A program made the translations under genes and the position numbers. This document shows positions 27,659-40,368 of a stretch of DNA of 64,000 bases, piece after piece. The notes beneath the pieces were generated by a model that was not told the origin of the DNA, did no database searches, and saw only the letters and a list, made by a program, of their open reading frames with translations. Position 1 is the first letter of the stretch; each line of letters begins with the position of its first letter. The DNA is from an uncultured Thermococci archaeon. Lineage in GTDB: Archaea; Methanobacteriota_B; Thermococci; Methanofastidiosales; B48-G16. Location: the NCBI GenBank assembly GCA_964595645.1, contig CAZQQT010000011.1:28400-92399 (forward strand), read 5' to 3'.

Positions 27659-28339
27659 TTACCGTACTTCCGTGTCTACATACGGCTGTAGAATCTCCGC
27701 AAACTGCTGCAATACGTGAGGTGGATATGGAGCTATTTCCTCAAATTTTGGGTCCAGTGTGTTTTTCGGCACAAACTGCTGTAAATAGTACTTTCTTGCA
27801 TTGTTGATGAGCTTCCCAATATTCTCAGCGATTGTTGCGTTGTAAAACGGAGGAACAACAGTTGTTCTAAACTCATATGCGATATCGGAACTCTTCAAAA
27901 TGTCTATCGATTCTTCTATTACTGCAGTGTCCACCTCTACTCCTGCAGCTTCAGAGTATGCCTCCAGATCCGATTTTATATCCATGGAGACATAGTCCAA
28001 GAGTTCCTGGTCCAGCAGATTCCGAAGCATTGAGGGATTGCTCCCATTGGTGTCCAGCTTCACTAACAGCGAGATCTCCCTTATTCTCGTAATGAGATCG
28101 GGGAGATCGTTGTAGATAGTGGGCTCACCTCCTGTAATCACCACCCCGTCGATATACTTTTTTCTCGCCGCAAGTTGGTGAAGTATTTCTTCTTCATCCA
28201 GCGGAGGAAGCGTGTCCAGTACAAGATCTCTGTTATGGCAGTACGGACAGCGGAAATTACATCTAGATAAAAAAAGAACAGAAGAGATATTTTTTGGATA
28301 GTCTATTAGTGACGTTTTCTGAAAACCAGCGATCTTCAT
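27659..28339 (-). CDS. nrdG: Anaerobic ribonucleotide reductase activating enzyme (radical SAM)
   Basis: CNFRCPYCHN, TGGEP and DTNG motifs; overlaps nrdD. Confidence 0.92.
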   Translation of the reverse strand: MKIAGFQKTSLIDYPKNISSVLFLSRCNFRCPYCHNRDLVLDTLPPLDEEEILHQLAARKKYIDGVVITGGEPTIYNDLPDLITRIREISLLVKLDTNGSNPSMLRNLLDQELLDYVSMDIKSDLEAYSEAAGVEVDTAVIEESIDILKSSDIAYEFRTTVVPPFYNATIAENIGKLINNARKYYLQQFVPKNTLDPKFEEIAPYPPHVLQQFAEILQPYVDTEVR

Positions 28340-30447
28340 ATACGAGCCTTCACCTTATAACGAGCATTTTCTTTGCCGAGAGCCTTCCGCTCATGGAACT
28401 CCTGCCGTTCTCTGAACTCCTCCTTCTTCCCCTTGTTCCAGTTCTTCACAGGTCTGAGGTAACCAACTACGCGCGAATATACCTCTGTTTCGCTATTACA
28501 TTCGGGACATATAGGTGTTTCACCTGAAAGATACCCATGATCCTGGCATACACTGAATGTAGGCGAGATCGTGAAGTATGGGATTCCAAAGTTGTACGCA
28601 ATTCTCTGTACAAGTTTTTTGCAGCTCTCTTTCGACGATACGCGCTCACCTAAGAATCCATGGAATACAGTACCGCCGGTGTACTTTCTCTGGAGGTCCT
28701 CCTGCAGCTCCAGCGCTTCAAATATGTCATTGGTGTGCTCCACAGGAAGCTGTGTGGAGTTTGTATAGTAGGGCTCTCTTTTGCCAGCTGTGATAATATC
28801 AGGGAACATCTCTTTGTCTATTTTTGCGAGTCGGTAGCAGGTCCCTTCGGCGGGAGTGGCCTCTAAGTTGTAGAGGTTTCCTGTTTCCTCCTGGTACTCC
28901 TTCAGTTTTTCTCGCATGAAATCGAGGACGTTCAATGCGAACGCTCTGCCTTCTTCTGACACAATATCGACACCTAAAAAGTTCAGCAGTGCCTCATTCA
29001 TCCCGACCAAGCCGATTGTAGAGAAATGGTGATCGAGATCTCCTAGATAGCGTTTGGTATAAGGCAGTAATCTCTGGTTAATGTTTGCGGTCACCGCTTC
29101 TCTTTTTATCTCCAGGGACTTCTTGGCCAGATCCATCAGGCTGCCCAGTTTCCTGAAGAACTCATCTTCATCCTCTGCAAGATATCCAATTCTTGGTAAA
29201 TTGAGCGTGACGACACCCACACTGCCAGTGGACTCACCGGCACCGAACAATCCTCCTGTTTTATTTTTCAGGTCACGCAAATCCATCTGGAGTCTGCAGC
29301 ACATCGATCGTACATCTCCCGGTTTGAGATCACTATTAAGAAAGTTCTGGAAGTAGGGAAGTCCGTACTTTGCAGTCATCTCAAAGAGATGATCAGCATT
29401 TTCAGAGTCCCAATCGAAATCATGAGAAATATTATAGGTGGGAATGGGGAAGGTGAACACCCTATCTTTATAATCCCCCTCGTACATGACCTCCATAAAT
29501 GCCTTATTGATAAGATCCATCTCTTCCTGGAAATCATCGTAGGGTTCTTCCAGGAACGTATTGCCATGGATGGCTTGCTCACCCTTGAGATCCTCAGGGA
29601 CTGTCCAATCAAGGGTGAGGTTGGTAAACGGTGTCTGGCCGCCCCATCGGGACGCCACATTGAGACTGAATATGAACTGCTGAATCCGCTGTTTCACCTT
29701 TCTGTAGGTGAGATCGTCCTTTCTCACATAGGGAGCGAGATACGTATCGAATGAAGAGAATGCCATTGCTCCTGCCCATTCGTTCTGTAGTGTTCCTAGG
29801 AAGTTTATCATCTGTCCTAGTGCAGTGTCCATATGTTTCGCCGGTGCACTCTCTATTTTCCCTGGAACGCCGTTGAAACCTTCCATCAGCAGTTGCCGGA
29901 TGCTCCAACCGGCACAGTACCCTGTGATGCCCATAGAGAGATCGTGAATATGAAACGCGCCATCCTTGTGCGCCATGGCAATCTCGGGAGGATAGACATT
30001 GTGAAGTGTGTAGTTCGCTATCACGCTGCCTCCCACATGCATCAGCAGCCCCGAAAAGGAGTAGGCGATATTACTGTTCTCATTCACGCGCCAGTCGGAC
30101 TGCTTCAAATACCCTCCCATAGTCTCCTCGATATCCATTAGGAGTTTTTTTGTTTCTCTAATTTTCTTATGTTGTTCTCTATACAGAATATACGCTTTTG
30201 CTGTTCTGTAATGACCATTTTCTGTTAATACTTTTTCTACCGCATCCTGTACTTCCTCTACATGCGGTATTTTATCAGGAAATTTCTCCTCTAGAAGACG
30301 AACTACCTTTCCTGACAGTTTTTTGGAGAGTTCTCTATCATCTCCTCCAACTGCCTGTGCCGCACTAAAAATAGCATCGGTAATCCTCTCCCGATCAAAA
30401 TCCACTATTCGTCCATCTCGTTTTTCAACTTTTTCTATTTTTGACAT
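28336..30447 (-). CDS. nrdD: Class III anaerobic ribonucleoside-triphosphate reductase with ATP cone
   Basis: KRDG ATP cone; SMCCRL; EATPAE; C..HG...CP.C; YSRVVGY glycyl-radical loop. Confidence 0.96.
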   Translation of the reverse strand: MSKIEKVEKRDGRIVDFDRERITDAIFSAAQAVGGDDRELSKKLSGKVVRLLEEKFPDKIPHVEEVQDAVEKVLTENGHYRTAKAYILYREQHKKIRETKKLLMDIEETMGGYLKQSDWRVNENSNIAYSFSGLLMHVGGSVIANYTLHNVYPPEIAMAHKDGAFHIHDLSMGITGYCAGWSIRQLLMEGFNGVPGKIESAPAKHMDTALGQMINFLGTLQNEWAGAMAFSSFDTYLAPYVRKDDLTYRKVKQRIQQFIFSLNVASRWGGQTPFTNLTLDWTVPEDLKGEQAIHGNTFLEEPYDDFQEEMDLINKAFMEVMYEGDYKDRVFTFPIPTYNISHDFDWDSENADHLFEMTAKYGLPYFQNFLNSDLKPGDVRSMCCRLQMDLRDLKNKTGGLFGAGESTGSVGVVTLNLPRIGYLAEDEDEFFRKLGSLMDLAKKSLEIKREAVTANINQRLLPYTKRYLGDLDHHFSTIGLVGMNEALLNFLGVDIVSEEGRAFALNVLDFMREKLKEYQEETGNLYNLEATPAEGTCYRLAKIDKEMFPDIITAGKREPYYTNSTQLPVEHTNDIFEALELQEDLQRKYTGGTVFHGFLGERVSSKESCKKLVQRIAYNFGIPYFTISPTFSVCQDHGYLSGETPICPECNSETEVYSRVVGYLRPVKNWNKGKKEEFRERQEFHERKALGKENARYKVKARI

Positions 30448-30448
30448 A

Positions 30449-30898
30449 TTACTCCACCTTTAATTTCTTTAATTCTTCCTCAAATGAGCGTAAATCCTGA
30501 AATTCCTTACACACAGACGCAAACCGTACATAGGCCACATCATCCAATTCTTTTAATTTCTTCATTACGATATTCCCAATGGTCTTACTTTCTATTTTGC
30601 TTTTTCCAAGCTCTTGAAGCTCGTTCTCTACCTCATCAACAAACTTTTCGATCTCTTCCTCTGAGACCGGACGTTTCTCGCATGCCTTCTTGATGCCGAG
30701 CGCAAGTTTGTCCCGGTGATACTGTTCCTCTCGCCCATCCTTTTTCACTACAGCAAATCTCCTTTCTATTCTCTCATACGTGGTAAATCGTTTACTACAT
30801 TTTATGCATTCTCTCCTTCTTCTTACAAAGCTACCATTTTCGCTTTCTCTGGTATCTACCACTTTTGTTTCGCCGTAGGAGCAGTAAGGACACTTCAT
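30449..30898 (-). CDS. nrdR: Transcriptional repressor NrdR
   Basis: MKCPYC, RRRRECIKC..RFTTYE, ATP cone and AYVRFASV motifs. Confidence 0.96.
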   Translation of the reverse strand: MKCPYCSYGETKVVDTRESENGSFVRRRRECIKCSKRFTTYERIERRFAVVKKDGREEQYHRDKLALGIKKACEKRPVSEEEIEKFVDEVENELQELGKSKIESKTIGNIVMKKLKELDDVAYVRFASVCKEFQDLRSFEEELKKLKVE

Positions 30899-30902
30899 TC
30901 CA

Positions 30903-30950
30903 CCACAACATATAGTATTGCAATACAATTTAATACACTATATATAGTTT
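30903..30950. promoter_or_regulatory. Tandem NrdR boxes
   Basis: ccaCaAcATATaGtat (30903-30918) and acaCtAtATATaGttt (30935-30950), 32 bp apart; both match the acaCwAtATaTwGtg consensus. Confidence 0.85.
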
Positions 30951-31027: not shown

Positions 31028-33475
31028 CTAGATGAGAGTGAGAAGGTACTCTATCAGCGCAATTGTAAACTCTAAATTATCTCCATATTTTATTCCTGTG
31101 GTAAACATCTGGGACGATCCCGAACACACAAGATACCCGTCCCCTACCTCCCTCAACGTAATGATCGCAAAATCCTCTATCCTCCCATCAGATGTTGCTG
31201 CATAACTACTCTCATTCCCCCGTAAAAGTACAGTAGTCTCTCTATAGTTCAGTACACCACCAGAAATATTTAACTCAGAGACATCTTCATAAAATGGGAA
31301 ACTCGGAAACTCTTTTACCCGCACATAGTATGATCTCCCACTGTTGCTTTTATCATCGCGAAAACTGGATTTGATGAATGTTGTGCCGTACTTCTTGGAG
31401 ATTCTATTGAGATCTATGTTTAGATACGTATGGTAGGTACCGCAGAGTATCAGCACGCCACCGTCCCTCATATACTCTTCAAGTTTCATGACTTCCTTTT
31501 CATTGAAATCTTCCCCGGGGTTTGTAACGATCACAATGTCGTACTCATCTAATGCTGGAAACTCATTGGTGGTATACGTCCCAATGTTATTCTCCTTCAA
31601 ACGGTCTTTTAACACTTCATTTAGAGTATAGTATTGATCTTTGTTCTGCAGAAAAAGAACTTTAGCTTTATATTTTTCTACATCCTCTTTATACGGTTTT
31701 AAAGCGTTTAATCTCTCTTTTATTTTTTTCAATTTTCTATTTTTTACTATAAACACGGAATTAATATTTTCAAATGTCTTTTTTATAGAGAGGAACTCCT
31801 CTGAGTCACAGAGTACTGTGTTTTCTAGTTCTTCAATTTTCTTGGCGATTTCTTCCTCCAATTTTTTATTGGTGCTAAATATAGAAGAAACGTATACCCT
31901 CTTTTGTAACTCCTGCGGATCCTCTGGTTCTTCTGGCTCCGGTATATAGCCTGGAGTGCCCCCTAAGGGACCGTATCTCCACACTCCATTGATTTTTTCC
32001 AGTGAGTGTCCTTCTTTTGCATTTCCACTATACTTTACCTCATCCAATATCACCTCTCCTTGCATAATCACGACGTGGTCGCCGGAGTTGGATAGAGAGA
32101 GATTCCCGTTGACCCTCAGTTCATTCTCTACCTCCACCTCATCGAAGACATGTGTATACTCATCCGTGATCACTGCACATTCTCCTGGAGGGATTGGATC
32201 TCCTAGTATCTCATCACCTCCACACTGCAGATTTGTGGGATCGTACAGGGTATCACTGGAATTGTATACTTCCACCCACTCGTAATAATAGTCAGATTTT
32301 CGAGGATTGTACATCACTTCTGTGAGAATTATTGGAGGATCGAGCGAGTACAACCTGTTGTACTCTCCGGGCGTGGGCTTTGTCTCTGCAAAGGACGTAT
32401 TTGAGAGTATTGGAAACCGTGCTAGTGTCCCGTGATTCCACACTGCGTGGTCCATCATTCCGTTATACTCAAGCAAGACTTCACTGAATCTCTCATTGAT
32501 CACAATATCTGGGTGAAATCCAAACTTGCTGAAAAACGAGGATTCATCGTTGGATATCACTAAAAATTGATCCACATAAGTAGTAAATGTTCTTATCGTT
32601 TCCAGTGAAAGAGAAAAAGATACCTCTCGCGGTATTGGCGTGTACAGCTCTATAAAATTCTCTGAAATCTCACTAATCACAAAAAAATCGTTGATAGTGC
32701 CCAAAGACTCATACGTATCGTGGAGATCGGAAGTATCCCATGAATACCCATAGACAACATTGCCATCGGGAATCCGCTGAATGCTCTCCTGGAGATCATG
32801 GCCGTAGTACCCTACCATATCAATGAGCTCTCCTGACGCATTGAAGAGATAGAGAACGTCCTCTTCTTGGAGGGTTATTGTCGACTCAAAAACGCGGACG
32901 TTTCGGGAATCTATCGTCCCTGTCAGATAAAATATCCCATCGCCATCAGAGAGAAAGAAATCGTCAAGATCTATCGACACTGTACGAGGATTGTACACCT
33001 CTATCGATTTTTCGTAGTACTCGTTAATCCGTATGGAATTTCCTAGATTCACTGGAGGAGCATCGTTTTCCATTCCTTTTGTAGGTGTGAGATCAAGATT
33101 CCACTCTCCATTTACAAAGACACAGGACTCGTAACTCGGTGGAGCAGGAGCGTACCCTCTGTAACCGTAGGAGACACTATCAATGACACTATCATTATCC
33201 TTCAGTACAATGGTATCGCCGTTATTGTCAAGAAATCCAGATGGTTCGAGGATATGGTATCCATACGCGGGTATTTCCTCAGTCGTGAACTCAATTATTC
33301 CTTCTGATGTTTCTATCGAGTATCCATCCAACTCAACAGATGCAGAAGAAGGATTATATAATTCAATCCATTCACCTCCCTTTATACAGAACTCATTGAT
33401 TCGTATCTCCTCTTGCGATGCTCCAATATCTATTAAAGAGCATACAATGAGGATTATTACTATATACCTCCTCAT
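31028..33475 (-). CDS. Secreted multi-lamin-tail-domain protein with C-terminal GATase-like/DUF4350-like domain
   Basis: Signal peptide; repeated INE...EWIELYN, L.N.GD and TPG/TKG..N LTD motifs; C-terminal Y...GG.L domain. Confidence 0.7.
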   Translation of the reverse strand: MRRYIVIILIVCSLIDIGASQEEIRINEFCIKGGEWIELYNPSSASVELDGYSIETSEGIIEFTTEEIPAYGYHILEPSGFLDNNGDTIVLKDNDSVIDSVSYGYRGYAPAPPSYESCVFVNGEWNLDLTPTKGMENDAPPVNLGNSIRINEYYEKSIEVYNPRTVSIDLDDFFLSDGDGIFYLTGTIDSRNVRVFESTITLQEEDVLYLFNASGELIDMVGYYGHDLQESIQRIPDGNVVYGYSWDTSDLHDTYESLGTINDFFVISEISENFIELYTPIPREVSFSLSLETIRTFTTYVDQFLVISNDESSFFSKFGFHPDIVINERFSEVLLEYNGMMDHAVWNHGTLARFPILSNTSFAETKPTPGEYNRLYSLDPPIILTEVMYNPRKSDYYYEWVEVYNSSDTLYDPTNLQCGGDEILGDPIPPGECAVITDEYTHVFDEVEVENELRVNGNLSLSNSGDHVVIMQGEVILDEVKYSGNAKEGHSLEKINGVWRYGPLGGTPGYIPEPEEPEDPQELQKRVYVSSIFSTNKKLEEEIAKKIEELENTVLCDSEEFLSIKKTFENINSVFIVKNRKLKKIKERLNALKPYKEDVEKYKAKVLFLQNKDQYYTLNEVLKDRLKENNIGTYTTNEFPALDEYDIVIVTNPGEDFNEKEVMKLEEYMRDGGVLILCGTYHTYLNIDLNRISKKYGTTFIKSSFRDDKSNSGRSYYVRVKEFPSFPFYEDVSELNISGGVLNYRETTVLLRGNESSYAATSDGRIEDFAIITLREVGDGYLVCSGSSQMFTTGIKYGDNLEFTIALIEYLLTLI

Positions 33476-33503: not shown

Positions 33504-33914
33504 CTACACTGACGCTTTCTCCAAGCTCACGGTGACTAACGCCACAGAGATCTTTAACTCTTCAGCTATCTGCTCCGGTGTGTACCCTCTACCGTGCAGC
33601 CGGATAACATCACTGAGATCGGGAAGTTCGTTATTGCTCTTCAGTCCAAGACTGGTTCGTCGGTAGTGGATGGCTGGTGGTGTGAGACCCATCTCACGCG
33701 CTATCTCCTTATCGGTGTACCCTTGATGATACAGCTCCAAAAATGTCTCTCTGTCGAATTTCTTTTCTTTTTTATGATAGTTATTTTCGAGTCCAAGCCG
33801 TTTTCTTCGATAATTCACAGAACTCTGAGAAACCTCCAATTCCTCAGCAATCTCCCGATCGGTCAACCCCCGTGAGTGGAGCTCAATGATCTCCTCATCC
33901 GTGATCTTGGGCAT
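33504..33914 (-). CDS. Protein of three tandem HTH repeats
   Basis: GLTDREIAEEL / GYTDKEIAREM / GYTPEQIAEEL. Confidence 0.8.
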   Translation of the reverse strand: MPKITDEEIIELHSRGLTDREIAEELEVSQSSVNYRRKRLGLENNYHKKEKKFDRETFLELYHQGYTDKEIAREMGLTPPAIHYRRTSLGLKSNNELPDLSDVIRLHGRGYTPEQIAEELKISVALVTVSLEKASV

Positions 33915-34041: not shown

Positions 34042-34377
34042 TCAGAAGCAAGTCTTTTCTATACCTAATAAACTATTAAATTGTTCCATTCTACGTGGCC
34101 ATGCAGATAATAATATGGCACAATAAAAATTATATAGAACAAGAAGACTAAATACTGGAAAAATATAGAGAATATCTCCTTCTTCTCTTTTATATTTATA
34201 TATTATTTGCTTTAAACCTAGCAACAAAACTATCCCCACAAGATAATTCCGTAAAGATTCTAGAGAAAGCCAGCTATAAAATACATAAATATACAATCCG
34301 AAAACTACAATTGCTATCATAGTATACGAAAGATATACTGTTTTCTTATTCCGTTCCCATAGTCTTACAAAGTTCAT
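34042..34377 (-). CDS. AT-rich small membrane protein (putative immunity, cassette 4)
   Basis: Three hydrophobic segments; begins about 30 nt after the orphan C-terminal cassette. Confidence 0.55.
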   Translation of the reverse strand: MNFVRLWERNKKTVYLSYTMIAIVVFGLYIYVFYSWLSLESLRNYLVGIVLLLGLKQIIYKYKREEGDILYIFPVFSLLVLYNFYCAILLSAWPRRMEQFNSLLGIEKTCF

Positions 34378-34405
34378 AATATTTTTCCTATATTTTCCTT
34401 TTTTT

Positions 34406-34930
34406 CTATACTACGCAAGGACATATGTCCTTTATGTGGTCAGTGACATCGTTTATTTGTCTTTTTAAGTCCCTGTTTTCAGTTTTGTACCATTCTATTG
34501 CTGGTGGGATATTTTCAATAGATTTTCTCTGTCCGTAGAGATGCATTTCGTTCCCTACAGCATATGTGACTATGCCCACAACAACAATATCTACTTTTAT
34601 TACTGCTTTTACCCCCTCTTTGATTGCTGTCCAAACAGTCCGCAGTGTCCATAGAGATTTAACATCTGTTCTATACCAATCTCTATTATCAAGAGTATCT
34701 TTCATATCCTTCCTCAGTGATCGAAGTTCATCCTTCCAGTGCTCTATTAACTCGTTATTTTCATTGATTTTATTCTTTCCAGCTTTTAAGGATCTCAGCA
34801 ATTCCCGTACCTCAGGATCATCAGGTGCTGGTGTCTCTGTTGGCGTCGGCGTCTCCGGTGGACACTCTCCATAGTCTTCAGAACGCGAGTCATCTGTTTT
34901 ATTGTATCCTTTTTCACCACGCAGGAGAGA
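34406..34930 (-). pseudogene. Orphan C-terminal cassette (no ATG before the linker)
   Basis: The frame opens after a TGA at 34931-33: EDYGECPPETPTPTETPAPDDPEVR, then coiled coil, hydrophobic hairpin and a terminal CPC. Confidence 0.65.
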
Positions 34931-35084
34931 TCACATAGAGGAGCAGAGCCATGATAGAGTTGACAAAGTTATTTCATAATTTATGACTTTATTGATTGAA
35001 AGAGTATTTTATTTCCTTCTAAAGGTTGAAGCCGTTTTGTAAAGATCGAGTCTCCCATTTCTTGCAAAATAACTAAAGATAACA

Positions 35085-35504
35085 TTAGCACCCACTATTG
35101 TTGCGATCCTCTTTGTATACATTGAGTCTACCCCCACTGTAGAAAAGAAAGGGAAGAAAGAAAGCACCACCATAACATCCAAACAAAAACATTGACCCGC
35201 CCCAATCTATTAATACCAGCCCTAAAAATAAAGGCATCGCAGATGCGAGAATATATCCTCTGAGATCTTTGCTGACCTCTTTCCACTCTACATGATATTT
35301 TTCCTTTTTGTAGATACCAATTCTTCCTGTGCTATAAAGATATAAAAACGCCAGCAGTGCGCCCGAAAATCCACCTAATAAGAGATAACCAAAGAAGTAC
35401 ATAGACATCCATGTGAATATAATACCAAAAGATAATAAAAAAAATAAAATAAGGAAAAAGGTCTTTGTGTCGATATTTAGGGTTGATATATTTTTGGTTG
35501 TCAT
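35085..35504 (-). CDS. Membrane protein with internal duplication (putative immunity, cassette 3)
   Basis: ATG directly after the upstream fragment's stop; two similar halves ending YSTGRIGIYK / YSGGRLNVYK. Confidence 0.6.
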   Translation of the reverse strand: MTTKNISTLNIDTKTFFLILFFLLSFGIIFTWMSMYFFGYLLLGGFSGALLAFLYLYSTGRIGIYKKEKYHVEWKEVSKDLRGYILASAMPLFLGLVLIDWGGSMFLFGCYGGAFFLPFLFYSGGRLNVYKEDRNNSGC

Positions 35505-35505
35505 G

Positions 35506-35748
35506 TTATCCACCACAGTACTTGCTACAATCTTGTGTCTGATCATCTTCACAATCTTCAACTGCATCTTTCCACTCTCCAATTTTTTCTCCCAATTCTT
35601 GAACCTCTTCCCAGTACTCATTCGCTTTTTCTCTAAGTTGCTTTGCTACCAGCGGATTGCATCCTTCACTGTACTCACACTCACCGGCCACACCGTAGTA
35701 CTCTCTGTACATTTGGTAGACATTGCCATACTGTGTCTTAGTGCTCAT
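35506..35748 (-). pseudogene. Orphan C-terminal fragment with VYQ.YR...GECEY module
   Basis: Homologous in DNA and protein to the 36159-36356 fragment; ends DCSKYCGG. Confidence 0.55.
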
Positions 35749-36148
35749 TGTCGCGATCCTCGTTATATTTCCTATTCTTAATCCACATTAGAACTGGTGT
35801 CCCTATAAAAGCCATTAGCAGTACGAGACATACGAGTATTACTCCGATCAATTTGATATATCTTACGTAAACTTCACTGAGGTATCCCATCTTTGCACAG
35901 ACTTCGCCTAAGCTGTAAAATAAGAGTCCACATCCTAAAAGGGTATGTTCATAAAACTCCATATTGGATATTTCATCCTGTCCCAGAATAACTGCCAGAA
36001 ACCATCCTCCCGAAAGAATAGGAAAAAGCATCTCTTCTGTGCTCCAATCAACATCGCCGATTTTCCAACTCCAGAATATGGCAAAACTCATTAAAAATAT
36101 AGAAAAAAAGAATAAAAAAATTCTTCTTCGTGTTCTTTTAAATCTCAT
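35738..36148 (-). CDS. 4-TM membrane protein (putative immunity, cassette 2)
   Basis: GGTGATT RBS overlaps the upstream stop; four hydrophobic segments. Confidence 0.65.
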   Translation of the reverse strand: MRFKRTRRRIFLFFFSIFLMSFAIFWSWKIGDVDWSTEEMLFPILSGGWFLAVILGQDEISNMEFYEHTLLGCGLLFYSLGEVCAKMGYLSEVYVRYIKLIGVILVCLVLLMAFIGTPVLMWIKNRKYNEDRDNEH

Positions 36149-36158
36149 CGTTAATCAC

Positions 36159-36356
36159 CTAGTTTAGTATACAGCTGCAATGCTCTTCTATCCACACTTG
36201 TAACTTATCGATCTCAAAGTTCAATCGAATAATCTGCTCCTCCGTCACCCTCTCTTCCCCGGTGTACTCGCACTCGCCGTCCTCGCAGTACCAGTCTCTG
36301 TAGGTCTGGTAGACCTTGCTGTTCTTATCAATCATTTGCTGCACCCTCGTTCCCAT
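36159..36356 (-). pseudogene. Orphan C-terminal fragment (YCEDGECEY module + helix + CSC end)
   Basis: VYQTYRDWYCEDGECEY resembles CYCGDGECDGY in the carrier; ends HCSCILN. Confidence 0.55.
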
Positions 36357-36922
36357 ACACTTGCCAGGCCTTGCAGGCGTTCTACATTATTCTCGAGGGC
36401 CTCTGCTCGTTCAATGCATTCATCCTCTGACTCACCTTGTTCATATGTTATATATCCAATTAATGAAGTAAGACCTAATGCTCCTGCCGCAGTACCAGGA
36501 CCAGGACAAATGCAAGTTCCTATGAATCCACCAACACCTGCACCTAATGCTATTAACTGACTTCTAGTCTCTGCAGTATCATACGTGTCAGCTAAACTCC
36601 TCAATCTCTTTGCCTCATCTCTCATAGCTGTAGCTCTTTTCCTGCATTCTTCTAACCTTTCACGATCACACGGACATCCGTTGCCTATCTCTCCAGTGCT
36701 TCCGTTCAGATGTGGGCAGGTATCGCATTTATTTCCGACTCCATCGTTATCTTTGTCCCACTGATTCGCGTTGGGGTTGTTGGGACAGTTGTCCTTGTGA
36801 TCTGGCACACCATCACCATCTGAATCCTGTTCCGGCTCCGGACTCGGTGTCGTTGTTGGTGTCGGCGTCTGGGAGGGTGTCGAGTCGTCACTTTCTTCGT
36901 AGTCCTCGGGACAGGTCAGAAG
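36332..36922 (-). pseudogene. Orphan C-terminal cassette: Pro/Thr linker + thrombospondin type-3-like Ca-binding repeats + Gly-rich hydrophobic hairpin
   Basis: The frame opens after a TGA at 36923-25: TCPEDY...TPTPTTTPSP, DSDGDGVPD..DNCP..N..Q.D.D.DGVG..CD, GCPC and LGAGVGGFIG...GTAAGALG. Confidence 0.65.
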
Positions 36923-37039
36923 TCATCGTTGCCTTCGGATTCCATGGAGTTATACATAGAGGCTGTTGATTATCTCATCTCTCTTCTATTTCTTTTTTAT
37001 GATCGTTTTTTCTATAAGTCTTTTGTTTTTTAATCTGCG

Positions 37040-37345
37040 TTAAATATATTTTTTATATGAAATTAAAATGATGAATATCGCCAACAAACTCAACATGAAG
37101 ACTAAAACATAAATAATATCAATGTTCAAAATTTCTAGGATTAGAAAACTTATTGGGAGGAAAAGAACTAAAAAAAAAGATCTTTTTGGTGTTTTGATAC
37201 GTTTGTATTTAACTGTCAGCACAAAATATAATTCCGCTATAGAAATTGGAACTGCAATTCCTTTCTGAAACAAAAGTGAATATAAAAAGATAAATATAAG
37301 GATTCCACTCAAAATTGTTATATGAATCCTCTTTTTGGATTCCAT
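37040..37345 (-). CDS. 4-TM AT-rich membrane protein (putative immunity, cassette 1)
   Basis: TAATG overlap with the carrier's stop; AGGAGG RBS. Confidence 0.65.
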   Translation of the reverse strand: MESKKRIHITILSGILIFIFLYSLLFQKGIAVPISIAELYFVLTVKYKRIKTPKRSFFLVLFLPISFLILEILNIDIIYVLVFMLSLLAIFIILISYKKYI

Positions 37346-40155
37346 TATGACCCTCCTACTTTCAAGGCACATGAACACGTTTCTAGTAGTTCTTTTGTGT
37401 ATTTTTCAGCAAGATCGCCATGATAATGAAGAAGCTTTATATGTTTATTTATTTGTATTTCTATACCGTTCGCTTTTATTTTGTTATATGCATATAATGT
37501 TGCATAAGCATCCAAAGTAAGAAATTTTGTCAATAAAGTGTCCTGTAGAATCTCTTTTGGATCCACTTCTGCACCACCAAGTTTCTTTATTGCGGATAGT
37601 ACAGGTCCAGCTAGTGTCGAGATCCACCACTCAACGTTATCGGGCGAAAAATTCTTATTAAAATTTCCTGCCCATTTCTTAGCGTCTTTTTCGTATTTCT
37701 TTTTTTTATTCTCGTATTCTTCCATATGTTTACTAATGAACTCTTCTTCTGCATCGATAAGGTACTTTTGTGTATCTATATCCTCCATCAATTTTCTCAC
37801 CTCAGGGTCATTCTTACATCCACATTCATCCGGCGGTATCGTGGTCGGACTTGGGGTACTCGTTGGTGCTGGTGTTGTAGTAGGCGTCGGGGGACACTCC
37901 CCACAGTCCTCGTTCCCGTTACATGACCCATCACCGCAGTAGGGATCTGGATCATCGCAGTCCCCACAGTCTTCGGGGCAGTCGTGACACCCCTCGCCTC
38001 TATAACCATCGCACTCTCCATCGCCGCAGTAGCAGGTGTCGGCGCCAAGAGCGAGTTCTTTGCCTTCGGGAGGCGGTGCCACATGAGGCAGGGGGAGTCT
38101 CTAAATCCTGCGGATTTCAATGGGAGGTAGGGGACCGGTCCTATAATCAGGTCCTTGTCCGGATCCTCCGGTTCTATCACAATTTCCGGTTGGATGTCGT
38201 TGAGCGTCTGGTACCTGACGGTCCACGCGTAGTTAAATGTGTCCTGCCAGGTGGGATCCTCTTCCGTAGCTTGGGATGCGGTCCACTTCATACTGTTGTT
38301 GTACAGCTTCTGCGTGAATGCGTCATCTCCTGCGATGGAGAGGTAGAGGTAGACCAAGGCAGCGTAGAAATCGTCCTTGTACTCGATGTGCCCATGCTCT
38401 ACCAGGTAACTTGCGTTGTTGAGGATATTCTCTATCTCTGTACGACTGGGGTTCTGGATATCGATGTTCTGCCATGAGCTCTTGAGGTTCTCCTGGACCG
38501 TGGTAATCTCTGTGCCCGTCGTCCTGCCAAACTCGCTTTCCCGCGTGTAGATGCCGAAGGTAAACATCACAGAGTCGATCTGGAGGAGGCCTAGATCGCT
38601 GTAGACATTTTTGAGGTCTACGAAGTTTTGGAGGATACGTTTCTCCTTTATTATTGATTTATTGTTCAAAATATCGGTCCTGAGCTGTTCTATCTCGCTA
38701 TCAGCAAGGCCGTAGTCGCTGAGGAGTATCTTCACCTCCTCTGGGAACTCGTTCTCTATCGTGGTAAAGGCTTCGTCTAGTTCTGTGTTGCTAAGATGCT
38801 CGAACTGCTGTACTGCCTCTCGCTGCGAGGCGAACCCACGAATCTCATTCATGTACCGGTGGTTCCACGCCGATTTCTTCACGAGATCTATCTTCGTGTC
38901 CAGAAGGTCGGCGAGAATCGCTGGATCTTTCTTGTCTTGGAAGGTAGTACTGATCGATTCTTTCTAACTCCTCATCGATGAGCTGTGACTCCTCCGTCAC
39001 GTTTGCCTGCCACTCACTCATCTTTTTTTCCAAGGCGCCTACGGTAAGAGATCCTTCCTCCGGCATGCGGATGGGCTCCTTGCCGTTCTTGAACAGGAAG
39101 TAGTACTCGCATTCCTCGTAGGGAAGTGTGATGCTGTACAGCGCGCCGTTCCACTGGTACTCATCGTCATCCTCACAAACAAGATCGTAGGCTACATTGT
39201 TGAGATAGACCTTTGCACTGGATGGTGGATCGTTGTTGCGATCGGTGTATCGAACTTGGAATGTTGTGGTTTCATCTTCTACACGTACAACCGGTAGTGA
39301 TAGTCGCGCCGGCGTCTCGGGGACCGTGTGGAACGACTGTAAACTCCATGAGATTTTTGTTCCTTCCACGGTGCTCAACGTGAGCTCCGTGGCACCGTTT
39401 ATTTTTTCTTTTGGGATTTTTATGGTTGCCTTGCCGTTCTGGAGGTTTGCTGCAACGGTTTCGGAGGAGTTCGTTCGATCCGTACTGTATCGTACCTCCG
39501 TCGGGTACAGTGTTGTCTTTTTCCTGTAGTAGATCCTGAAACAGAAATCTTTGTCGGGATCGAAACCGGCACGGCCATTGGCATAGCCTGAGCCGTAGTA
39601 CCACTGCACTCCCCGGAGTTCCAGGGTGTAGGTTCCGTTCAGTTTGAGGTTTGGGACTGCGAAAGAAAGCCATTTCGTCGTTCCCGCGGGAACTGTTACC
39701 TGATCGTGGTAGAGTGTGGTGTCGCTTTTTATTGAGAGGGATACTGTAGAGTCAGAAGGTGGCTTGGGAATCGGTGTGATGGGAACAGGTATTGGATCTC
39801 CGCTGAGGGACGAGGATAGTCGTAATGGTCTTGGTACCCGTACGTACACTTCTATCTTTGTTACCTCTCCCTTGCAGGTAAATGTTTGAGTGGGTGTTCC
39901 CCCTCTACAGCTCTCCACAGTTTCCTGTGTAAGGATGCGTTCTTCGTACCTCTCTGTAGCTTCACCTTTCACCGTGAGAACAGCATGATCCATATCATTC
40001 GCAGTGATGGTGAATGTCTCAGTGCCAATACATTCGCCACTCATTTCATCAATATACTTTGCTGGTCTATCAAAGGAATAGACCGGTAGAACAGCAACTA
40101 AAAGTATCACTACAACAAGCAACGCTGTAATCTGTATCCTCCCACTTCCCTTCAT
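37345..40155 (-). pseudogene. Large secreted carrier protein (signal peptide, beta-rich domains, CGDG Cys repeats, Pro/Thr linker, variable C-terminal domain), split by frameshifts
   Basis: Three overlapping ORFs (38845-40155, 37797-38882, 37345-38082) read as one protein, with frame changes near 38945 and 38090-38130. Confidence 0.65.
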
Positions 40156-40293
40156 ACTTACAACTCCTTAGTTAATAGGGATAGAGGGATTTAAAAGTTT
40201 TTCTATTTATCATGACAAATATTTCCAAATACTTGAAATGGAAGGTTTTTTTATCCCTGCCAATCTTTTGTAAGAAATCGAAAAGAAGAAGAG

Positions 40294-40368
40294 TGGGCCC
40301 GTCGAGATTTGAACTCGAGGCCTCCTGGTTATCAGCCAGGCGCTCTGACCAATCTAAGCTACGAGCCC
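40294..40368 (-). tRNA. tRNA-Ile(GAT)
   Basis: GGGCTCG/CGGGCCC acceptor stem; CCTGG-CTGATAA-CCAGG anticodon arm. Confidence 0.95.

Follow-up and report, generated by a model that had tools for sequence, protein, structure and literature searches.

Exchangeable cysteine-bracketed helical tips and membrane-protein partners in a predicted polymorphic toxin system of an uncultured Thermococci archaeon

Introduction

Polymorphic toxin systems such as CdiA-CT/CdiI, Rhs, and MafB combine a conserved secreted carrier with a variable C-terminal tip (CT) and a small cognate gene directly downstream, and are further marked by a junction motif before the tip, orphan tips, tandem partner genes, and a drop in guanine-plus-cytosine (GC) content at the tip (PMC3482391). 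Zhang et al. (2012; PMC3482391) describe such systems, and the corresponding immunity families, as rare in archaea, and the few predicted archaeal polymorphic toxins reportedly have for the most part nuclease domains of kinds that bacteria share (PMC3482391; PMC8416519, citing Makarova et al., 2019). Here we describe a locus that shares all of the above features, with CxC-x-DPEV or GNGCxC as the junction motif, in an uncultured Thermococci archaeon (Methanofastidiosales; B48-G16; assembly GCA_964595645.1, contig CAZQQT010000011.1, positions 28,400-92,399; this whole stretch of 64,000 nucleotides (nt) is referred to as the window). The locus lies at window positions 34042-40155 on the minus strand and all its genes are co-directional. 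Unlike the described systems, its carrier, tips, and partners have no detectable homology to described families, export is apparently by plain Sec with no T5, T6, T7, or PVC parts nearby, and the host belongs to an uncultured archaeal family. We read the locus as an archaeal polymorphic toxin system specific to this lineage, with exchangeable C-terminal tips that are predicted to act on membranes, and assign this reading a probability of about 0.5.

The tips fall mainly into two classes, here called A and B, and can be compared with four groups of membrane-active proteins. The pore domains of colicins are ten-helix bundles of ∼200 amino acids (aa). Pore-forming colicins (A, E1, Ia) resemble the tips in having an apolar helical hairpin flanked by amphipathic helices as the proposed membrane-inserting element and a small protecting partner with multiple transmembrane segments; the tips differ in being modeled with two or three helices over 117-161 aa, and colicins lack a Cys clamp. 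In the ClyA-family α-pore-formers (Hbl/Nhe, MakA/MakE, AhlB) the apolar head hairpin and its flanking helices align, below threshold, with the class B profile. Saposin-like NK-lysin/amoebapore and the plant α-hairpinins (CX3C...CX3C) are disulfide-stapled, membrane-active peptides in which the first and last helices are tied by Cys; the tips likewise have Cys near both termini, but with CxC spacing and far longer helices (∼50 residues), no homology was detected, and disulfides in the tips are putative. Glycine-zipper effectors (TelE, PMC10434224; the EsxX C-terminus, PMC12744356; CdzC/CdzD, PMC5380434) resemble the tips in that a polymorphic carrier bears a short apolar stretch, rich in Gly, at its C-terminus. 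They are themselves membrane-acting toxins with dedicated immunity proteins. Some of these immunity proteins are located in the membrane.

Results and Discussion

Carrier Gene, Junction, and Tip

The carrier and its tip are arranged as follows (ORF, open reading frame):

38845..40155, minus strand: carrier N-terminal part, a 436-aa ORF with a Sec-type signal peptide and no Pfam family
38096..38940, minus strand: carrier middle part in the +1 frame, between two compensating frameshifts (∼38940 and ∼38095-38060)
37831..38100, minus strand: pre-toxin region with a Pro/Thr linker after Cys-rich CGDGxC repeats, GC 61.5%
37348..37830, minus strand: CT1, class A tip, in which ECGC-x-DPEV is followed by a long helix, a short apolar one, a second long helix, and TCSC
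37040..37345, minus strand: CT1 partner, small membrane protein with two strong hydrophobic segments, GC 25%

The last frame reads, in order, CGDGxC repeats, Pro/Thr linker, ECGC-K-N-DPEV, and the 161-aa helical CT1, whose stop codon is overlapped by the ATG of the partner gene (TAATG). The carrier and linker have a GC content of 49-61%, which drops to 35% in CT1 and further to 25% in the CT1 partner. Proteins P0002-P0009, which come from metagenome-assembled genomes (MAGs) labeled Euryarchaeota, Methanobacteriota, or Methanomicrobia archaeon, are 914-971 aa long and span all three carrier pieces in a single ORF; the carrier N-terminal part is 51-56% identical to their N-termini, and the middle part is 66% identical to P0002 residues 435-720. 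The general plan of the carrier is a Sec-exported protein of ∼950 aa that ends in a Cys-rich/Pro-Thr/Ca-repeat spacer followed by a tip of 95-175 aa, and the Cys-rich/Pro-Thr pre-toxin module also precedes the tips in P0002, P0014, and P0015. P0006, P0007, and P0008 have near-identical N-termini, yet different tips and even different middle domains. By its sequence layout, the locus is a polymorphic toxin system in the structural sense (PMC3482391): a carrier with a variable tip and orphan cassettes are both present.

The N- and C-terminal parts of the carrier share the same frame (C-terminal frame, 38100-37345), and the 860-nt +1 middle between them contains no stops. The first frameshift is an extra C at ∼38940 and the second lies near a C-run at 38095-38091. 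Because the two shifts compensate and the middle frame is stop-free and retains its similarity to P0002, the damage reflects either an error of the assembly or a pseudogene of very recent origin. Carrier paralogs on contigs C4 and C6 of the same genome are intact, with the N-terminal and middle regions in one frame. Four contig ends (C4:1-2000, C6:1-2000, C8:1-460, and C13:49115-49630) break inside paralogous carrier/tip genes at the repeated Cys-rich junction GCWEGCCDPCPC; therefore the genome has three carriers, and the pairing of tips to carriers is hidden by the gaps.

Two Classes of Tips With Cysteines Near the Ends

Two further tips in the window are orphans:

36335..36685, minus strand: CT2, orphan tip of class B, in which GCPC is followed by a charged helix, an apolar Gly-rich hairpin turning at PGPG, a second charged helix, and ...GCSK
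34409..34930, minus strand: CT3, class A orphan tip, GECPP-PT-linker remnant, 5'-truncated, without N-terminal CxC, ending in ICPCVV

We surveyed 26 tips from this genome, related MAGs, and metagenomes. Class A comprises CT1, CT3, the CT4-type tips on contig C13, and the tips of P0003, P0005, P0006, P0009, P0014, P0015, and P0016, with the consensus CxC-x-(D/N)(P/D)EV ... CPC(A/V)(L/V). Across the 13 rows of the class A alignment, the C-terminal CxC never varies and its N-terminal counterpart is conserved at 90% or more. CT1 is 57% identical to the P0014 C-terminus, and CT3 is 76% identical to a paralog on contig C8 that begins with CDPCPC (CDPCPCSHDPEV); CT3 itself has no N-terminal CxC because it is 5'-truncated. 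Class B follows the pattern GNGC(P/T)C ... apolar hairpin, GGP or PGPG turn ... (R/K)GC, and its 11-row alignment, which includes the tips of loci L017 and L021 (NGCRC ... CxC), shows an invariant G-C-x-C and a C-terminal Cys conserved at 90% or more, so that the class conserves three Cys. CT2-type tips end in a single Cys (WERGCSK or WERGCRND in the window, P0002, and P0007; WTSGCKR in P0008), and the C2 paralog, 58% identical to CT2, lacks even that. Other tip types, in loci L016 and L019, likewise have Cys at both ends. Comparison of class A with class B by hhalign gave 74% probability over the last 32 columns only, and shared ancestry of the two classes was not established.

The apolar segments are WWISTLAGPVLSAI in CT1 and VIKVDIVVVGIVTYAVG in CT3 (tip 34409-34828). 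Hydropathy was assessed as the maximum of a 19-residue Kyte-Doolittle window (KD19) against 500 shuffles per tip. The most hydrophobic window is central in 26 of 26 tips (relative position 0.38-0.63). For CT1 the maximum KD19 is 0.85, no higher than in shuffles (p = 0.49), with 53, 21, and 24% charged residues in the N-terminal, middle, and C-terminal thirds; for CT3 it is 1.95, above shuffles (p = 0.008), with 46, 26, and 31% charged residues; and for CT2 it is 1.68, also above shuffles (p = 0.016), with 46, 3, and 36%. In class B, the middle third is 0-8% charged in all but one member, the maximum KD19 of 1.5-2.2 exceeds shuffles in most members, and the apolar turn region is long enough for a transmembrane helical hairpin.

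A sequence-only reading of the window had described the three long tips as having no obvious sequence identity, each with a charged-apolar-charged layout clamped by Cys pairs. The apolar segments with charged flanks are present in all three, although by hydropathy that of CT1 is not membrane-like. ECGC opens CT1, GCPC opens CT2, TCSC closes CT1, and ICPC closes CT3 as described, whereas the other two motifs given as closing pairs, HCSC and CSKYC, belong to the ends of remnant ORFs. Cys pairs at both ends of every long tip were not found, given the single terminal Cys of CT2-type tips and the truncation of CT3. Nor are the tips without relation, since CT1 and CT3 align in one divergent family (class A), with CT2 in class B.

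Class A tips end in C-x-C-aliphatic-aliphatic-X (CPCALE, CSCILG, CACALN; window 37345-37375 and 34406-34420, L009, L010). The likeness to a CaaX or Rab CXC prenylation signal is formal: the motif does not stand at the terminus in every case, and export of the protein is by Sec. At L010 2451-3290 (contig C13 47450-48289 of this genome), a spare CT4-type tip runs past CPCALE by ∼55 residues, the stop codon present in its sister copy having been lost.

Predicted Folds and Remote Similarities

AlphaFold2 was run with the family alignments of CT1 and CT2, which are shallow (11-13 rows). The CT2 model is a plain two-helix hairpin (helices 8-59 and 63-116) that turns at PGPG, with a mean predicted local distance difference test (pLDDT) score of 65.7, ∼80 in the stems and 45-57 in the apolar tip. 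CT1 is modeled with helices at 9-60, 66-84, and 91-151 and a mean pLDDT of 79.7; 63 residues of the two long helices exceed 90. Conserved terminal Cys would thereby lie on both strands of the antiparallel helices, as in a hairpin (CxC plus a single Cys in class B). From the helix register in the two models we infer that the N-terminal CxC would sit beside the C-terminal Cys. The resulting Cys clamp could consist of disulfides or of a metal site, and the metal site appears at least as likely; it was considered because the organism is an anaerobe, its genome coding for an anaerobic ribonucleotide reductase (NrdD/NrdG), and because class B conserves three Cys.

The sequence-only reading had proposed a disulfide-stapled α-hairpin that would enter membranes and had named an enzyme or adhesin match as evidence against it. 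The AlphaFold2 models support the hairpin, plain in CT2 and with a short middle helix between the two long ones in CT1. Foldseek searches of the PDB with CT1 and CT2 and a wide VIA-align search with CT1 gave no enzyme or adhesin fold; the matches were generic antiparallel coiled coils (colicin E receptor hairpins, IpaB, Vipp1, chemoreceptors, Smc arms), all below significance, and the VIA-align Z of at most 11 is under the helical noise level stated for the tool. On balance, the observations in that reading are partly confirmed and its interpretation is partly supported.

All the sub-threshold similarities lead to apolar hairpins of α-pore-formers. The best PDB matches of the class B profile are the head hairpins of MakE, NheB, and MakA (E 0.18-3.6, with LAPFT-GG-SL-ILA aligned), and the top Foldseek match of CT2 is the membrane form of MakA (7p3r, E 0.23). 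Unlike these toxins, which have a tail bundle of ∼350 aa, the tips have none, and the likeness may be convergent composition. The Pfam family ApoL matched one orphan tip with E 5e-4, under the curated cut-off, and no Pfam colicin family matched the tips at E up to 1. A glycine-zipper motif ((G/A/S)xxxGxxxG) occurs once in CT2, five times in the C2 paralog, four times in P0007, and not in CT1 or CT3; the strict form, GxxxGxxxG, is confined to some class B tips, and the tips share no sequence homology with the glycine-zipper effectors. A Pfam scan of all locus proteins gave nothing beyond noise and a TSP_3 match in the region preceding CT2. Together with partner families that follow tip type and partner genes in tandem arrays (below), the similarities to ClyA-family and ApoL hairpins make pore formation by the tips plausible. 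Their toxicity is predicted, the support being structural analogy, and no known toxin family was matched.

Membrane Partner Genes

Besides the CT1 partner, three genes in the window code for membrane proteins of this kind:

35738..36148, minus strand: gene for a membrane partner of 136 aa, a homolog of the C-terminal half of the 254-aa partner type that lies beside CT4-type tips
35085..35504, minus strand: CT2-type membrane partner (imm178 family), 139 aa, parted from CT2 by inserted remnants
34042..34377, minus strand: CT3 partner, small membrane protein of 111 aa, MNxVxLWERNKK family, GC 29%

All four partner genes in the window are intact. In a Kyte-Doolittle scan of the partner genes in the window, on C8, and in L014, L016, L017, L018, L020, and L021, each has 2-7 hydrophobic segments; the C2 and C13 partners, outside this count, both cluster with families having multiple transmembrane segments. 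The earlier proposal that every partner is an integral membrane protein thus held in the window and in the seven other loci scanned. The partner proteins gave no Pfam match, and no CPBP/Abi motifs were seen by eye. The CT1 partner had no relative among the other partner genes with which it was compared, the 136-aa partner is 77% identical to a gene on C13 and 62% identical to one on C8, and the CT3 partner is 47% identical to partners on C8.

Partner families track the tip type: CT2-type tips go with imm178 in three genomes, GCTC-type tips with another family, and class A tips with a third superfamily. Homologs of the imm178 family lie directly 3' of the CT2-type tips on C2 and in L014, and L014 (3506-6122) has five imm178-family genes in tandem next to a single full-length toxin gene, with the final codons of a CT2-type tip in front of each of the five. 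The order of tip and then partner, together with this family co-variation, makes cognate immunity plausible at the level of gene arrangement, protection itself being predicted.

The same co-variation could reflect self/non-self recognition, in which a variable surface tip meets a cognate partner with multiple transmembrane segments, in the membrane of a neighbor or of the cell itself, and a match signals kinship or permits adhesion or fusion. The Proteus pair IdsD/IdsE is an example of such recognition. Apart from the co-variation, the weakly apolar class A tips, the placement of both interacting parts in the membrane, and the finding of no recognizable toxic activity or enzyme fold would all suit it. 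Five tandem partner paralogs beside one tip, together with stores of orphan tips and partners, however, form the signature of an immunity collection, and class B tips resemble the membrane-spanning hairpins of pore-formers; we regard recognition as unlikely, and prefer membrane-acting tips paired with immunity proteins.

Distribution

The carrier is present in 3 of 5 other genomes of the window's own family vs. 0 of 28 in the rest of the order, and a few sediment and vent metagenome contigs also gave matches. In sensitive searches for both tip classes, no tip turned up on a different, identifiable carrier. The class A profile had nine matches among 1.84 billion representatives; eight are from this genome or are carrier-type relatives, and the ninth is a protein of 1648 aa that is probably coiled-coil (E 1.7e-5). 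The class B profile search ("longer" mode) gave four matches, two being carrier relatives described above or proteins like them. With the intact 202-aa C8 protein as query, a word-indexed protein search returned that protein only, and the best score of an ESM Atlas search with CT2 was 0.76, which is uninformative. No McrA domain was found in the host genome.

Proposed Mode of Action

In the mechanism we propose, the Cys clamp, whether of disulfides or a metal site, would keep the stem of the hairpin closed, and the apolar tip would enter the cytoplasmic membrane of a neighboring cell, which is exposed in an archaeon with an S-layer only. The hairpins would then oligomerize and depolarize or permeabilize the cell. 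In the producer's own membrane, the cognate membrane partner would bind the inserted hairpin and block it, in the manner of the immunity proteins of pore-forming colicins and glycine-zipper effectors. The tips may accordingly be tentatively viewed, with somewhat less than even odds, as the first archaeal pore-forming polymorphic toxins: a minimal Cys-clamped α-hairpin that enters the membrane of a neighbor and is neutralized within the membrane by a cognate partner with multiple transmembrane segments, possibly as part of a wider archaeal theme.

Several points weigh against membrane-acting toxin tips. All similarities to pore-formers are below significance and could be yielded by composition alone; the AlphaFold2 alignments are shallow and confidence is low at the apolar tip. 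The glycine-zipper motifs are inconsistent, being enriched over shuffles in 2 of 20 tips tested. Several class A tips (CT1 and its relatives, the CT4 type) are no more hydrophobic than their own shuffles. The carrier of the window has two frameshifts, and signal peptides are missing from the orphan tips. Finally, a hairpin with both ends outside could equally be an anchor in the membrane of the producer.

The last point leads to an arrangement in which the exported hairpin would tether the large ectodomain to the producing cell, the partners would be assembly or stabilizing subunits, and the variability would be explained by pressure from viruses or predators for which the protein is a receptor. 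C-terminal membrane anchors are frequent in archaeal surface proteins, and the topology, an N-terminal signal peptide followed by a hairpin with both ends outside, fits. Such an anchor leaves unexplained the orphan tips, the tandem partner arrays, and the sharp GC drop at the tip boundary; moreover, several class A tips are insufficiently hydrophobic for it, and the variable part would be the anchor itself instead of the exposed ectodomain. We consider it quite unlikely.

The fighting and mutual recognition of archaea are little understood, and the predicted toxin system described here is built wholly of undescribed parts, from its carrier to its tip scaffolds, of which there are two or more, and its several families of membrane partners. 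The conserved Cys-clamped hairpin is a compact module of ∼100-160 aa with a matched partner, the membrane activity of which can be tested directly on archaeal lipids. If active, it would be a minimal solution to pore formation and intramembrane immunity, and would add a membrane-targeting class to the archaeal conflict repertoire.

Orphan Cassettes and Remnant ORFs

The remaining features of the locus are fragments:

36686..36922, minus strand: CT2 pre-toxin remnant, a Pro/Thr linker and thrombospondin type 3 (DxDxDG) repeats, without signal peptide
36159..36356, minus strand: remnant ORF of 65 aa, the partner-gene start MIDKNSK, the pre-toxin module VYQTYRDWYCEDGECEY, and the last class A helix, ending in HCSCILN
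35506..35748, minus strand: remnant ORF of 80 aa, a VYQxYR(D/E)(W/Y)Y...GECEY module and an acidic tail ending in CSKYCGG

As orphan tips, CT2 and CT3 have no carrier but retain the junction and the Pro/Thr linker; orphans were also found in L018 and L020. The CT2 pre-toxin remnant matches Pfam TSP_3 with E 1.9e-5, and the full-length proteins P0002, P0007, and P0008 contain a pre-toxin region of this type. Judging from their composite sequences, the 65-aa and 80-aa ORFs are recombination chimeras or remnants. The tail of the former resembles the end of P0003 (NCSCILG), and the VYQxYR(D/E)(W/Y)Y...GECEY module shared by the two is internal in the carriers P0007, L016, L018, and L021 and forms the N-terminus of the spare tips on C8 and C13. 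CT2 and the ORF ending in HCSC were also considered as one read-through tip, which was rejected: the CT2-type tips of C2, P0002, P0007, and P0008 stop at the same ...W(E/T)RG(C/G).

The two carrier frameshifts, the two chimeric ORFs, and the orphan tips without signal peptides and conserved starts would be expected if the window locus were a decayed, non-expressed pseudogene array with no present function. This appears improbable: the frameshifts compensate around a stop-free middle frame that is similar to P0002, the four partner genes are intact, and so are the paralogous carriers on C4 and C6. Because its carrier is frameshifted, the window locus may today be chiefly a reserve of cassettes and immunity genes within the predicted toxin system.

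Neighboring Genes

A tRNA-Ile(GAT) gene (window 40293-40368) lies directly upstream of the carrier. In the relatives L014 and L016 the locus adjoins instead gyrA and the genes for a radical-SAM protein and an Lrp regulator, which implies that in this genome it was either relocated or inserted at the tRNA gene. The last partner gene is followed immediately, on the same strand, by a gene (window 33504-33914) for a 136-aa protein made of three helix-turn-helix repeats, which may regulate the array. Next to it are a gene (window 31028-33475) whose secreted product of 815 aa has three lamin-tail domains and, at the C-terminus, a DUF4350-like domain, and an nrdR - nrdD - radical-SAM activase operon (window 27659-30928), in which NrdR, mainly a bacterial regulator, is here found in an archaeon.

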